A stretch of DNA of 24,259 bases from a virus (lineage: Duplodnaviria; Caudoviricetes). Numbering within the stretch: position 1 is the stretch's first letter; each line of letters opens with the position of its first letter. Made by a program: the position numbers and the translations under genes. Below, in pieces: positions 8,648 to 24,259 of the stretch. The notes beneath the pieces were generated by a model that saw only the letters and a list, made by a program, of their open reading frames with translations, searched no databases and was not told the origin of the DNA. The stretch lies in the IMG/VR virus record IMGVR_UViG_3300049595_001276, positions 1 to 24,259 of that record. One strand, written 5' to 3'.

Positions 8648-9265
8648 ATGACAAAAGACTTAATTCAACCTATTCTAGAAGCATTCGATACATGTGGTAT
8701 CGAATGCATTTTCTTAAAAAAAGCAATCCTGGCAAATATTCAGAAGGAATGTGGTGGTATTCCTTCTGCAGAAAATCTGAATTATTCTAAAACTTCTAAT
8801 ACAAGAATTAGATCTATTTTTGGATCAAGAGTAGCCAATTTTTCAGAAGAAGAATTGAATAATGTGAAGAAAACACCGGAATCTTTTGCTGAAATTGTTT
8901 ATGGAAATAAGACTACTTTGGGTAGATCTATGGGTAATTTAGAGCCAGGAGATGGTTGGAAATATCGTGGGCGAGGATATATCCAATTAACAGGAAAGAA
9001 TAATTATATCACATATGGTAATGCAACTGGATTTGATTTAATTGATAATCCTGATATTCTGGTTAATGATAGAAAAGCTTCAGCTGTAGTTTCTGTTGAA
9101 TTTGTGAAGCTTGGATTAGCTGGTAAGTTGAAATTCTCTTCACAAGAAGAAGCTAATCGTGCAGTAACTCAAGTGATCGGAGGAAGAGGTCTAAACCTAA
9201 ATGCAGGATACGGCTCCGAATTATTGGCGAAAGTTAACAAGTTCGCTTCTAATATTGTTCTATGA
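8648..9265 (+). CDS. Glycoside hydrolase family 19 lysozyme/chitinase-like (endolysin-type)
   Basis: KECG, ENLNYS, GDGWKYRGRGYIQLTGKNNY, NPD. Confidence 0.9.
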   Translation: MTKDLIQPILEAFDTCGIECIFLKKAILANIQKECGGIPSAENLNYSKTSNTRIRSIFGSRVANFSEEELNNVKKTPESFAEIVYGNKTTLGRSMGNLEPGDGWKYRGRGYIQLTGKNNYITYGNATGFDLIDNPDILVNDRKASAVVSVEFVKLGLAGKLKFSSQEEANRAVTQVIGGRGLNLNAGYGSELLAKVNKFASNIVL

Positions 9266-10011
9266 AATATAGAGTGAATGCTCTATTCCTATCAGATCTA
9301 CATTTAGGTACAAATGCCTGTAATGTAGATCTGATTGTTTCTGTACTCAAATATTTCGATCCTGAAATTATTGTATTGAATGGAGATATCATAGATTTTT
9401 GGCAGCTTAGTCATTCAAGATCATGGACAAAAGATCACAATAATATCCTGAGAATCATATTCAAATTAGCAAGAGACGGAAAGAAGATTATCTACTGCAC
9501 AGGAAATCATGATGAGATATTAAGAGAGTATACTCCATTCTCATTAGATAATATCTATGTTGTTGACAGATACGAATATAATTCTGAATACAATAGAATC
9601 TTATTTGTACATGGTGATGCTTTCGATTTTGTGATTAAATCTAATAAGTGGTTGGCTAAGATTGGATCTATTGCTTATGATTTTCTGATTGTTGTTAATA
9701 GTTATTTCAACAGATTGAGAAAGATAATTGGAATGGATTATTGGTCTCTCTCAAAATATCTGAAAACACAAACTAAAAAGAGAATAGGTATCTTACAGAA
9801 ATTCGATACATTAGTTGCAGAATATGCTAAAGATTCTGGTTTTAACAAGATATCTGTTGGACACATACACATTCCAGAATATAAAACAATAGATGATATT
9901 CTATACATAAACACTGGTGATATGTGTGAAACTGGTTCATTTCTCATAGAAACAGTTGATGGTGAATTACAATTAATAACAGATTTTGTTACTTGGAAGA
10001 AGAGTAACTAA
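9262..10011 (+). CDS. LpxH/YbbF-like metallophosphoesterase
   Basis: SDLHLG, GDIIDFW, GNHD, HGDAFD, GHIH, YINTGD. Confidence 0.85.
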   Translation: MKYRVNALFLSDLHLGTNACNVDLIVSVLKYFDPEIIVLNGDIIDFWQLSHSRSWTKDHNNILRIIFKLARDGKKIIYCTGNHDEILREYTPFSLDNIYVVDRYEYNSEYNRILFVHGDAFDFVIKSNKWLAKIGSIAYDFLIVVNSYFNRLRKIIGMDYWSLSKYLKTQTKKRIGILQKFDTLVAEYAKDSGFNKISVGHIHIPEYKTIDDILYINTGDMCETGSFLIETVDGELQLITDFVTWKKSN

Positions 10012-20238: not shown

Positions 20239-20634
20239 ATGTCAAAACCTTGGATTCATGCATTATCTTCTGCTAGAAAGTTTGGTGGTGTTCCGGAAGA
20301 TTATTTGGATATCCACCAACTGATGGATTCTTCAAAGGGTGTGATGTCTGATAATCGCCATCGTGCATTAACTCATAACTCTTGGTTTCTCTCAACTATC
20401 TTAGAAAAGATATTTGGAGTGAACATTAAGAATTCTGATGGTCGTGATGTATCTGTCAGGGATGTTGGTGAACAACATATCCTAGAGGATTTTGGTAATC
20501 GCTATATCCCAAATGCTTCTGATTATTTGGAAGAAATGGAATACAGGTCTTGGATGAATGCTGGCAAAGACACAGTCCCTTCTTCTCACAAGAAAATTAC
20601 AAAAACTGTAACAAATAAAATGAGGATTGATTAA
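20239..20634 (+). CDS. DUF6915-like protein
   Basis: PWIHALSSARKFGG.PEDY..IH..MDSSK, RHRALTH, VRDVGEQHILED. Confidence 0.75.
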   Translation: MSKPWIHALSSARKFGGVPEDYLDIHQLMDSSKGVMSDNRHRALTHNSWFLSTILEKIFGVNIKNSDGRDVSVRDVGEQHILEDFGNRYIPNASDYLEEMEYRSWMNAGKDTVPSSHKKITKTVTNKMRID

Positions 20635-20635
20635 T

Positions 20636-21100
20636 ATGGATAAGAATGTATTTATTGAAAAGATTGCTGAATTCAAGAGGATTCAAGCAGAACACAAGAA
20701 GATGATGAGTGAGAATGCAAAGAATATTTTCAGTGATATTTCGAAAGGAATTTTCGAAAAGAATCCTAGTTTAAACTCATTCGCATGGTCTCAGTATACT
20801 CCTTATTTTAATGATGGAGAAAGTTGTACATTCTCAGTTAATCGAGATTATTATAAGATTAATGGATCTGAAGAAACATGTGATGATTGGTCGTTAAATC
20901 ATGAAAAATACAGTCAAGAAATGGATCTAACAGATTATGGTTTCGAGACTTTGGATCAATTACGAGCAGCATATACTGACATTAATGAATTAATAGACAT
21001 GTTTGACGACGACGATCTTGAAGGTATGTTTGGTGACCATGTTGAAATTGTTGTATTTCGTGATGGTCGAATTGAAATTGATTATTACTCCCACGACTAG
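20636..21100 (+). CDS. Acidic phage protein of unknown function
   Basis: WSQYTPYFNDGESCTF and MFGDHVEI motifs; ATG 20636 lies 1 nt after the upstream stop. Confidence 0.75.
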   Translation: MDKNVFIEKIAEFKRIQAEHKKMMSENAKNIFSDISKGIFEKNPSLNSFAWSQYTPYFNDGESCTFSVNRDYYKINGSEETCDDWSLNHEKYSQEMDLTDYGFETLDQLRAAYTDINELIDMFDDDDLEGMFGDHVEIVVFRDGRIEIDYYSHD

Positions 21101-21271: not shown

Positions 21272-21279
21272 TATAAATA
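21272..21279 (+). promoter_or_regulatory. T4-type late promoter driving the tmRNA
   Basis: Exact TATAAATA; predicted start near 21285 matches the beginning of the helix-2 strand ATTGAGT. Confidence 0.75.
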
Positions 21280-21531
21280 TTCATATTGAGTGATGATCTA
21301 GACTGAAAGCTTCTTGGACGTGGGAGGCAGAGCCCACCACCTCCACCAAAAGCGCATTGTGAGGAGCTAGTTGCATGGCAAATTCGAACAAAGTGCAACC
21401 CAAGATATAATAGTGTACATAAAAATCTTGAGCAGTGCGTTTTTGATGGGGGTGAAACAGATTCGACAGGATGAACTAGGAACAGGGAACTCAGTCGGAA
21501 GATGACTCCCGTAACAGCATAAACTATAAAC

Positions 21532-21564
21532 GGCAATGCAAAAGCAATGTCCATGTCTGCCTAG
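21532..21564 (+). other. tmRNA tag reading frame (A)GNAKAMSMSA*
   Basis: Resume context ATAAAC-GGC-AAT; stop embedded in hairpin GTCTGCCTA-GAAA-TAGGTAGAC. Confidence 0.8.
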
Positions 21565-21619
21565 AAATAGGTAGACTGGGTTTTTCGAGATTTCTCCTGG
21601 AAACAGAATAAAATCTCAT

Positions 21620-21645
21620 AACCTCACGCAAGTGAGGTTTTTTTT
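21620..21645 (+). terminator. Rho-independent terminator ending the tmRNA precursor
   Basis: AACCTCAC-GCAA-GTGAGGTT-TTTTTT. Confidence 0.9.
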
Positions 21646-21682
21646 GCGCATATCAATAAATAGATCCAGGAGGATCATACTG

Positions 21683-22702
21683 ATGATCTTAAACTCTAAA
21701 AGCCTTTCCGGAAAAGCGAAAGAACTAGAAGATAAATTAAATGCAGTTGTTATCGGTCAAGAAGAAGCTATTAAAGAATTAACCATAACAACACAGAAAT
21801 TCTTCAATGGTCTATCTGATCCAAAAAGACCTATCACATCTCTTTTCTTTGCAGGAAAGACTGGTTGTGGAAAAACGAAGGCCGCAGAAGAGTTAGCTAA
21901 ATTTTTCGGTGTTGAGAAATTCTTGAAGGTTAATTGTGGAGAATTTCAACAATCACACGAGATCTCTAAGTTAATTGGTTCTCCTCCAGGATATATCGGT
22001 CACTCAGAAACAAAAGCTTTCTTCAACAAGAAGGATGTAGAAGAAACTGTTCCGAACATAATTTTATTTGATGAAGTGGAGAAGGCAACTGATTCTCTAT
22101 TCCATCTGCTATTGTCTATTCTAGATAAGGGTGAGATTAAGTTAGGTAACAATGATGTGGTGAATTTCAGAAATTGTTTCATTATCTTTACATCGAATAT
22201 CGGCGTTGAGGAAGTTGCAAAAAGATCAAAATCAATTGGTTTCATAGAAGACAAGATAAACAATAGTGACGAGATCGATCTATTGAATAAATCCATGAAA
22301 GCTAAGTTTCGCCCAGAATTCATGAATAGAATTGAATCTGTTATAAAGTTCAACACACTCAACACAGATAACATGAAGAAAATTCTGGAATTAGAATTAT
22401 CTCAAATTCAATATAGAATTATGTCTTCTAAACTGAATAAGAAGAAAGTCTTTTTCGTGATGTCTGATGATACTAAGACTAAACTGATTGAAGAAGGTTT
22501 TTCAGAAGAATATGGGGCGAGAAATTTAAAGAGAGTTATTTCTAAAAAGATAGAAATCCCTCTCTCATGTGTGCTTGCGGACGATAGATTAGAATCTGGT
22601 GATATTATCGAAATTAAGACTGCAGTTGGCGAAGAAGATTTGATCTTCGAAAAGGCGAAGATCAAAAGAGCGAAAACTAAGACACTTACACTAGATATCT
22701 AA
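21683..22702 (+). CDS. Single-module Clp/Hsp100 AAA+ ATPase (ClpA/B/C D2-like) with IGF loop
   Basis: GKTGCGKT, pore loop GSPPGYIG, FDEVEKA, FTSN, KSIGF, FRPEFMNRI, YGARNL; AGGAGG SD and AATAAATA box favour ATG 21683. Confidence 0.9.
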   Translation: MILNSKSLSGKAKELEDKLNAVVIGQEEAIKELTITTQKFFNGLSDPKRPITSLFFAGKTGCGKTKAAEELAKFFGVEKFLKVNCGEFQQSHEISKLIGSPPGYIGHSETKAFFNKKDVEETVPNIILFDEVEKATDSLFHLLLSILDKGEIKLGNNDVVNFRNCFIIFTSNIGVEEVAKRSKSIGFIEDKINNSDEIDLLNKSMKAKFRPEFMNRIESVIKFNTLNTDNMKKILELELSQIQYRIMSSKLNKKKVFFVMSDDTKTKLIEEGFSEEYGARNLKRVISKKIEIPLSCVLADDRLESGDIIEIKTAVGEEDLIFEKAKIKRAKTKTLTLDI

Positions 22703-24259
22703 TCGACATTAATCTTAGTGAATCCATTTACTTTCACGAATCTCAATACTCGTTCAAACTTATCTGCTAAGAACTCAGTCTTGTGAGAAATAACGAAAGT
22801 GTTTGTTTTCTCTTTATCGGAAGCCAAGATTTTCAAGAATTCATCGATACCAAGCGCATCTAATGATGAGTCTAAAATTTCATCTAATATCAATAGATTC
22901 GTATTCGCTGCATTCTTCATCTTGGCTATTTCTCTCCAAGTGAACAGAATAGCAAGATCGATTCTTAGTTTCTCGCCTTCAGAAAAAGAGTGATAGGTAA
23001 ACGACTCTTTTGATTTATTCTTGATGACTTCATCGAAGTTTTCATCTAGTGTGAAGTTTACATAAAAATCCATTAATTGAAGATACTTGTTAATGATCTT
23101 ATTCATCATAGGAAGATAGTGACGAATAATCTTAGTCTTGATTCCATCATCTTTCAATAGGATCGAAGCAATAGATTGTAGATGCTGTCTATTCAAGAGA
23201 TCATCTCTCTCTTCAGTATAGATCTCTAATTCCTTCTTAATCTGAGTAGAATCTTCTTGAATCTTTCTTAGATCTTCTTGTTTCTTGCTATGGAGATCGG
23301 TAACTTGTTTCGACAATTTAGATAGATATTTCTGAATAGAATCTATCTCAAATTCTTTCTGTGTGATCTCACTCTTTCTAGATTTAATAATATCGAGACT
23401 CACATTGATAACATCAATCTCTTTCGAAATATTAGTTATCTCTGTTGAACAAGAATCTAAAGCTGTTGTGTATTTCTTAAGATCTTTGTTTCTGTCTTCA
23501 ATTGTTTGTGTTTTGAATGATTCTGGAATAGATTGTGTGCATGTTGGACAAGAATCATTAGTGTCAAAGAACTTAATCTCTTTTGTAAGAGTCTTAGTCT
23601 TCTCTTTGAACGTCGCCGAATATTGAGTTAGTTGAGACAACTTAGTATTCAGATTAGATAATTTAGAATCATTGACAATGATGTCTTGAATCTCATTTTG
23701 AATAGATTTGACAGTGACTTCTTTTGTAATCAGTTGTAGTGTATTTCTCTGAATCTCTTTCTCAATTTCTGAGATTTGAGCGTCTAGATTTGATGAAGAA
23801 TCAGATAGTATATTCGAATGAATCTTAATCTTCTCTTTCGTTAGATCTAGTTTATACGATGTATTCGTCAGATCTTCTTTTGTTTTGGAAACTTTAGATT
23901 TAAGTAAAACATTCATCTTAGAAAAGATATCTATATCTAATAGATTCTCTACGATATTTCTTCTATCCACCGGAGACAACTTCATGAACGGCATATAAGT
24001 TGCATTCCCAATCACAACAATTTGTGTGAATGACTTATAATTCATCTTCAAAATATTAGTTTCAAGGAACTCTTGATAATCTTTTGTGAGAGCATCTTGA
24101 TTTAAGAGTTTCTGATTTTCGTAGATTTCAAAGACATTAGGTTTCATACCACGTCTGACTAGATATGAATCAGAATTAATAGTGAATGTGACCTCAACAA
24201 GAAGATCTGAATTATTCGTTGTATTGATTAATTGTGGTTTATTGACTTTTCTGAATGGT
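22699..24259 (-). CDS. 46: T4 gp46-like SbcC/Rad50 recombination ATPase, 5'-truncated by window edge
   Basis: Frame open to the window edge (PFRKVNKPQLIN...); CPTC Zn hook, FSEGEK signature, LILDE Walker B, ISH. Confidence 0.95.
   Translation of the reverse strand, partial: PFRKVNKPQLINTTNNSDLLVEVTFTINSDSYLVRRGMKPNVFEIYENQKLLNQDALTKDYQEFLETNILKMNYKSFTQIVVIGNATYMPFMKLSPVDRRNIVENLLDIDIFSKMNVLLKSKVSKTKEDLTNTSYKLDLTKEKIKIHSNILSDSSSNLDAQISEIEKEIQRNTLQLITKEVTVKSIQNEIQDIIVNDSKLSNLNTKLSQLTQYSATFKEKTKTLTKEIKFFDTNDSCPTCTQSIPESFKTQTIEDRNKDLKKYTTALDSCSTEITNISKEIDVINVSLDIIKSRKSEITQKEFEIDSIQKYLSKLSKQVTDLHSKKQEDLRKIQEDSTQIKKELEIYTEERDDLLNRQHLQSIASILLKDDGIKTKIIRHYLPMMNKIINKYLQLMDFYVNFTLDENFDEVIKNKSKESFTYHSFSEGEKLRIDLAILFTWREIAKMKNAANTNLLILDEILDSSLDALGIDEFLKILASDKEKTNTFVISHKTEFLADKFERVLRFVKVNGFTKINVD

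Follow-up and report, generated by a model that had tools for sequence, protein, structure and literature searches.

Two-piece tmRNAs have already been published from phages (PMC9004378, PMC11915505, PMC4131195), where 53 of 133 unique tmRNAs had this form (PMC9004378), and both tmRNA and SmpB were reported for huge phages (PMC7162821). Phage-encoded ClpP, ClpA and ClpX were also published (PMC7824862, PMC6102473, PMC5964084). In ClpA, the D2 ring has been described as the principal motor, with D1 as the ring chiefly responsible for recognition (PMC11570520), and ClpX is described as using its RKH loop for ssrA recognition, with the AA ending of the tag as the main determinant (PMC7652416). 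In the literature covered, which took in few subscription journals, no description of D2-only Clp ATPases was found, Acidobacteriota members included, and no tmRNA-Clp ATPase adjacency was described, the supplementary tmRNA lists of PMC11915505 and PMC9004378 lying outside that coverage. The locus reported here makes the question of why phages carry tmRNA testable with three small purified parts, namely the tag, the ATPase and ClpP.

The window, which is the whole 24-kb stretch of DNA that was analysed, is a fragment of a T4-like phage with a G+C content of 35%. It contains genes for DNA polymerase, a UvsX-like protein, helicase, RNA ligase, Hsp20 and a gp46-type protein, the T4 gene names being assigned by reading the translations. 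The genome size of the relatives was estimated at ~180 kb from contig completeness. Cultured phage records contained no close ATPase (best 38%) and no close tmRNA. A first-pass annotation had placed in the window a permuted tmRNA beside a co-oriented Clp ATPase, with TATAAATA at 21272 ahead of the tmRNA, AATAAATA at 21655 ahead of the ATPase, a tag ending in MSMSA, and a GYIG pore loop together with an IGF motif past sensor 1 in the ATPase. All of these were confirmed here, with an Rfam RF04321 match and the ATPase gene on the same strand. Intact and on the same strand, the tmRNA and the ATPase have stayed together over a deep group of phages.

The annotation had suggested a search for this synteny in related phages, which was carried out and found the arrangement conserved down to 42% ATPase identity. 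The tmRNA was upstream of the ATPase on the same strand in 18/19 T4-like contigs, directly adjacent in 11 and with one gene between in 7; the 19 contigs include the window and represent about eight distinct ATPase types with 42-99% identity. The exception was L197, where the ATPase was present and no tmRNA was found in its mere 142 upstream bases. This linkage was kept while the other upstream neighbours of the tmRNA were shuffled. All viral matches to a tag-specific pattern (9/9) had the ATPase, and a Clp gene was found in the flank of none of the other viral permuted tmRNAs (0/77). This control scan covered 11/64 parts and gave 80 pattern matches with flanks, 78 of which passed the permuted-tmRNA test; the sole one with a Clp gene nearby was the L012 contig, which left 77 others. 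At least 2.5 kb downstream was available for 58 of the 78, and 40 further flankless matches were left out.

The gp46-type recombination gene (22699..24259, minus strand), which converges on the ATPase and is cut at the window end, is the fixed downstream neighbour of the ATPase in the relatives and served as the synteny control. It was downstream of the ATPase in 19/19 contigs, a linkage as tight as that to the tmRNA. Among 62 gp46 loci, 3 belonging to the T4-like group had both genes and 59 had neither, with at least 2 kb downstream available for 41 of the latter. ATPase identity followed that of gp46/47/55, and the trees of the ATPase and the gp46 set agreed. Since the ATPase is equally tied to gp46 and diverges with gp46/47/55, the linkage may reflect nothing more than inheritance within a single group of phages. 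The trees hinted that the tmRNA-ATPase pair had arisen twice in this group, a candidate that was dropped because monophyly was not rejected (p-AU 0.22). With gp46 present in 19/19 contigs and the trees in agreement, the pairing may thus be one event.

The permuted tmRNA at 21285-21564 matched RF04321 with 83 bits (cut-off 47, E 8e-15) and RF01849 with 64.6 bits; the window tmRNA was not detected by ARAGORN at default settings. The 3' tRNA half with CCA lies ahead of the 5' half. The acceptor piece (21285..21348, plus strand) consists of the T arm (21320-21337, T stem of 5 bp), the 3' acceptor strand (21338-21344) and the encoded ACCA (21345-21348). It is followed by an intervening segment of 99 nt (21349..21447, plus strand) with a 12-bp closing stem, and then by the coding piece (21448..21618, plus strand), which carries the 5' acceptor strand (21448-21454, with G3.U70), a D-loop analogue, the tag frame, a stop hairpin (21555-21576) and a conserved 3' motif (21596-21608). 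The acceptor stem of the window forms 7/7 pairs, and the seven pairs, G3.U70 and ACCA were present in 11/11 aligned loci, with compensatory changes at pairs 4-6. A pseudoknot ahead of the tag frame, made of a stem and a loop-tail pairing, was seen in 5/11 loci with compensatory changes; for the window it was not recovered by the script used. Judged by its sequence, the window tmRNA is intact and functional-looking.

The intervening segment was almost unchanged in L002, L010 and L293, and measured 7-85 nt in other relatives. It was near-identical to that of L010/L293, whose ATPase is 43% identical, and unlike that of L001, whose ATPase is 99% identical, so parts of the tmRNA move between lineages. 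Its fold had a z of -1.4, within the range of shuffles. A DUF6915 gene and a phrog_9564-type gene (20239..21100, plus strand) are frequent upstream neighbours in the relatives and were exchanged among lineages, as was the tmRNA. A gene for an HNH homing endonuclease adjoins the tmRNA 5' end in L005 (3988-4647) and L293, with remnants in L006, L007 and L294. This protein was 91% identical between L005 and L293, and the gp46 of those lineages was 44% identical; the endonuclease is a possible driver of the tmRNA segment swapping. A gene of 66 aa with an RF-1 domain, absent from the window, lies just 5' of the tmRNA in 6/19 contigs (L001:4178-4378, L002, L005, L006, L007 and L294) and has PRQ or PDQ in place of the release-factor GGQ. 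A glycosyltransferase-like gene was inserted beside the tmRNA in L003 (3735-4847) and L009 (4612-5709), on the downstream side in one lineage and on the upstream side in the other. SmpB was looked for in 5 contigs and not found.

Ahead of the tmRNA lies TATAAATA (21272..21279, plus strand), which we take to be a T4-type late-promoter motif. The stretch ahead of the ATPase (21655..21673, plus strand) holds the late-promoter-like AATAAATA and the ribosome-binding site of the ATPase (21667-21673). The number of TATAAATA copies in the window was at chance (4 found, 2.5 expected, 29/100 shuffles as high). The TAAATA core was at the same position ahead of the tmRNA in 11/11 aligned loci, and in 19/19 contigs TAAATA was also found upstream of the ATPase match, at a distance of 130 nt or less. 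The motifs are thus supported by conserved position, not by number, and the late-promoter context that had been proposed is supported at both genes. An intrinsic-terminator-like hairpin (21620-21639) with a T run lies between tmRNA and ATPase (21620..21647, plus strand), so the two genes probably give two transcripts. The TAAATA core of the ATPase lies in the loop of the tmRNA terminator hairpin in L009 (5960-5997), L228 and L243.

The Clp ATPase (21683..22702, plus strand, 339 aa) is a stand-alone D2 (NBD2) module of the ClpA/ClpC-type AAA+ proteins, with no N-domain and no D1. It comprises Walker A (residues 58-65), the pore-1 GYIG (103-106), Walker B (127-131), the sensor 1 TSN (170-172), IGF (185-187), an Arg at 216 and sensor 2 (278-280). 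AAA_2 and ClpB_D2-small were the only domain matches, and just the second AAA+ module of ClpA/B/C was matched. The predicted structure had a pLDDT of 86.6, and ClpC D2 was the closest match. In the alignment, IGF185-187 was in register with IGL617 of E. coli ClpA and IGF268 of ClpX. The catalytic motifs (Walker A/B, sensors, Arg finger and pore-1 aromatic) were all kept in 25 homologues, and the pore-1 loop read PPGY[ILV]GH in 25/25 proteins. The IGF loop was x-G-[FY] in 20/25 homologues and I-[TAS]-F in 5/25; the subgroup with ITF/ISF/IAF replacing IGF consists of P0014 and P0016-P0019. By these motifs, the ATPase is predicted to be catalytically intact, with the IGF loop correctly placed. 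Identification as ClpX was rejected (38.9 bits against a cut-off of 359, 21% identity, no zinc-binding domain, no RKH loop), as was a two-ring Hsp100 (ClpA/ClpC/ClpB), because the D2 part alone matches, and a split ClpC with a separate D1, because no D1 match was found in 5 partial contigs. The C-terminal tail (window 22655-22702) is basic and then alternating-hydrophobic; the close homologues keep it and the L010 lineage lacks it. It could contact ClpP or an adaptor.

D2-only proteins grouped in a clade of their own, separate from the D2 domains of full-length proteins (SH-aLRT 97 and 100); this clade joins Acidobacteriota and viral proteins, and its named cellular members are Acidobacteriota. 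The ATPase therefore belongs to a D2-only Clp family of Acidobacteriota and their probable viruses. Such ATPases were found in 6/61 sampled Acidobacteriota genomes, two of the 61 being unpublished and counted in the denominator only. The chromosomal members (L088-L166, L309-L388) have about 385-420 aa. The bacterial D2-only genes had no fixed tmRNA neighbour, and smpB was within about 6 kb of the Acidobacteriota gene in 8 of the loci that were clustered. Acidobacteriota genomes had one-piece tmRNAs in 10/10 cases, with tags such as ANQELALAA, ANTELAYAA and ANTELAMAA. The phage host is probably an acidobacterium. Two other routes to the host were given up. The tag pattern gave 5 matches in bacterial genomes, of which 1 was a phage contig in a bin and 4 were without tmRNA signal; the glycosyltransferase-like neighbour had Acidobacteriota as the sole named relative among the 120 matches listed, was absent from 151 sampled genomes of the phylum and gave a weak indication. 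A contig of the T4-like group (L294/L304) lies within a Phycisphaerales bin, where it is probably mis-binned and is not host evidence.

Viral D2-only loci with at least 1.5 kb upstream numbered 53, of which 10 had a tmRNA and 43 had none, so the ATPase has some role even where no tmRNA lies beside it. Given this, the equal link to gp46 and the terminator between the genes, a shared function of tmRNA and ATPase is something that we infer. A second phage lineage (L016-L087, e.g. L035:4918-6966 and 8974-9367) has a Clp ATPase of ~680 aa with D1 and D2 and no N-domain match. A one-piece tmRNA with a long tag was found 1.9-5.1 kb downstream of it in 47/67 loci, and in 40/47 with full flank; the profile used was built from 11 of those loci. 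The second-lineage pairing, the ClpP-tmRNA loci described below and the RF-1-domain mini-gene are independent hints of a functional link.

The tag reading frame (21532..21564, plus strand) reads (A)GNAKAMSMSA-stop. The tags of nine loci were GNAKAMSMSA, VNTNVMAMSAAA, ANTNVLVMSAAA, VTAKAKTMSAAA, ANTNVLAMSAAA (twice), ADTKVFAMAA, AKSNKMKSFAASA and AKAKAKTMSARG; 6/9 end in AA, and some end in MSA, ASA or RG. Tags ending in SA or RG (window, L228, L243 and L609) fit ClpX poorly. The tags of the window and its relatives differ from the -LAA ending that is usual for other phage tmRNAs and resemble those of Acidobacteriota such as ANTELAMAA, to which ANTNVLAMSAAA and ADTKVFAMAA are close, and the tag looks host-compatible, not private. 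In 8/9 tags, encoded position 8 is Met and the next two residues are Ser/Ala and Ala, always equally far from the resume codon, and in the L003 tag the serine codon was switched from TCN to AGT. ClpA reads internal tag residues, and the held Met-Ser/Ala-Ala element would suit such a reader. The codons of this element also form an RNA hairpin.

Across the 9 loci compared, ATPase identity was followed neither by tag similarity (Mantel rho 0.04, p 0.37) nor by that of either tmRNA piece (Mantel, 9 loci), as against gp46 and ATPase identity in the same 9 loci (rho 0.77, p 0.004). ATPases 42% identical had tags one residue apart, and ATPases 94% identical had differing tags. The covariation of tag and pore loop that the first-pass annotation had suggested looking for was thus not seen in the 9 loci, with pore-1 PPGY[ILV]GH in 25/25 proteins.

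In a contig whose ATPase is 99% identical and whose tag is the same, ClpP (L401:10013-10591) is encoded beside gp23 (the capsid gene), ~24 kb away, which means that host ClpP is not required in the lineage of the window. ClpP was found in 3/10 partial contigs searched (15-69% complete). The triad S95/H120/D171 of the phage ClpP aligned with S111/H136/D185 of E. coli and was invariant in 38/38 homologues. The earlier proposal that host ClpP is used did not hold for these three contigs, which encode triad-intact ClpP, though the most distant lineage, L010, showed none in the 124 kb of its 69%-complete contig, the site after gp23 included; this lineage may use host ClpP. A role of ClpP as prohead protease is disfavoured, since the gp21 prohead protease was present in 5/5 contigs and ClpP is not needed for this purpose. 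The residues that we take to form the aromatic pocket of E. coli ClpP (Tyr/Tyr/Phe) were replaced in the phage ClpP. Arg192 of E. coli ClpP, described as critical for ClpX binding (PMC7112951), was also missing from the phage ClpP and replaced in the phage family. With these docking residues replaced, either the interface has been remodelled or there is no docking. In three large contigs, related ClpPs were found alongside a full-length ClpA that has IGF/VGF loops, and the phage G014 holds ClpA, a ClpX-like protein, ClpP and a permuted tmRNA. In other T4-like contigs (L444, L459, L460 and L462; 4/80 phage ClpP loci), a permuted tmRNA lies 1.5-3 kb upstream of the phage ClpP.

Since the tmRNA lies beside the ATPase and close relatives have their own ClpP, the phage likely supplies its own rescue-and-destroy kit. 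That the locus is such a kit for late ribosome rescue and proteolysis, with a host-compatible rather than private tag, is the most likely of the readings considered, though one on which we stand evenly divided. It draws on the conserved acceptor stem, the ATPase motifs, the linkage in 18/19 contigs against 0/77 in the control, the ClpP triad and the second lineage, and further on the RF-1-domain mini-gene in 6/19 contigs, the held Met-Ser/Ala-Ala element and the Acidobacteriota-like tags. Against it stand the tie to gp46, the terminator, the 43/53 loci without tmRNA, the bacterial D2-only genes without a fixed tmRNA, L197, the distance of ~24 kb to ClpP and its absence from the 69%-complete contig of the L010 lineage, the missing Arg192, the lack of D1 and of an RKH loop, and the changed IGF in 5/25 homologues. 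In such a kit, tmRNA and ATPase would each be transcribed from their own late promoter. The tmRNA would be cut into two pieces, charged with alanine and work with host SmpB. The ATPase would hexamerise like ClpX and dock through IGF on ClpP, which would be the phage's own in the lineage of the window and probably the host's in the L010 lineage, and it would degrade tagged chains among other substrates, parallel to the host proteases. A bolder form of the kit reading, which we consider rather unlikely, is a self-sufficient trans-translation clean-up. The phage would have its own tmRNA, a ClpX-like single-ring unfoldase that evolved separately, out of a ClpC D2 ring, and a ClpP whose docking surface has been remodelled; the unfoldase would read the internal Met-Ser-Ala whatever the last residues, so that MSMSA/MSARG chains, poor substrates for host ClpX, would be destroyed under phage control.

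The two genes may instead be neighbours with separate jobs, the ATPase being a core late gene (a chaperone, or a ClpP partner for host or phage substrates) and the tmRNA a mobile rescue gene whose tags are read by host ClpXP, both placed where a block that converges on gp46 ends; this is a serious possibility that we tend to doubt. The ATPase does track gp46/47/55, and tmRNA pieces, DUF6915 and the HNH homing endonuclease move between lineages. The genes have their own promoters with a terminator between them, 43/53 viral D2-only loci lack the tmRNA, 6/9 tags have the AA ending on which ClpX mainly depends (PMC7652416), and one origin of the arrangement was not rejected (p-AU 0.22). Separate jobs would leave unaccounted for, however, that the tmRNA stays at most one gene from the ATPase in 18/19 contigs despite changing neighbours, that the pairing recurs in the second lineage, where both the form of the tmRNA and the architecture of the ATPase differ, and that the SA/RG tags (window, L228, L243, L609) fit ClpX poorly. 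The orthogonal, co-evolving pair of the first-pass annotation, in which each phage's own ATPase reads its tag, host proteases do not, and host ClpP is used, was contradicted by the lack of tag/ATPase covariation (rho 0.04, p 0.37), by the AA endings of most tags (6/9), by an invariant pore-1 loop common to bacterial members whose genomes have ordinary tags, and by the phage ClpP in the lineage of the window. It is quite unlikely, even though the tags depart from the usual phage -LAA, some ending in MSA, ASA or RG, and the ATPase family separates from the D2 domains of full-length Clp proteins (SH-aLRT 97-100). A takeover or decoy would have the ATPase occupy host ClpP and displace ClpX/ClpC, with the tmRNA competing for SmpB and adding weak tags, so that ribosomes are freed and host-directed proteolysis is damped or redirected. 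An IGF-type loop without N-domain or D1, weak-looking tag ends in 4/11 aligned loci or their twins, and the DS6A phage tmRNA fragment, for which possible SmpB titration was discussed (PMC4131195), would fit this. Against a takeover or decoy, which is very improbable, stand the conservation of every catalytic motif, a full-length tmRNA whose tag frame is conserved, and the intact ClpP that relatives keep.

If active with ClpP, the ATPase would mean that single-ring unfoldases of the ClpX kind arose a second time and independently, and it would show how substrates are selected by a protein that lacks the N-domain, D1 and the RKH loop. Targeted degradation could make use of a phage ATPase-ClpP pair whose interface has diverged.

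Among the known systems, the jumbo phages Atu_ph07 and Rak2-like also encode ClpP together with Clp ATPases, for which roles in virion assembly or host-protein cleavage were proposed (PMC6102473, PMC7824862). Unlike in the window, their ATPases are full-length and the genes are far apart, and tmRNA-ATPase adjacency was not described in the available text of PMC6102473, PMC7824862 and PMC7162821. ClpX, the standard ssrA reader in ClpXP, shares with the window ATPase a single AAA+ module, an IGF loop and an aromatic-hydrophobic pore-1 loop, whereas the window ATPase is 21% identical to it and has no zinc-binding domain and no RKH loop. The D2 ring of ClpA/ClpC (ClpAP, ClpCP) is alike in identity (33-37%), fold (TM about 0.8), pore-1 GY[IV]G and IGF/IGL in register, while the window ATPase is without N-domain, D1 and M-domain, forms its own clade and has an extra C-terminal tail. 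The ssrA of the Methylophilales phage Melnitz is alike in being a permuted gene of a T4-like myophage with a form unlike the tmRNA of the probable host, and rescue or tagging was proposed as its role (PMC9004378). It is early and lies before a transcription coactivator, and Clp was not mentioned in the available text of that paper (PMC9004378); the window tmRNA, by contrast, lies between a late motif and a Clp ATPase gene downstream of it, and belongs to a group with Met-Ser-Ala tags.
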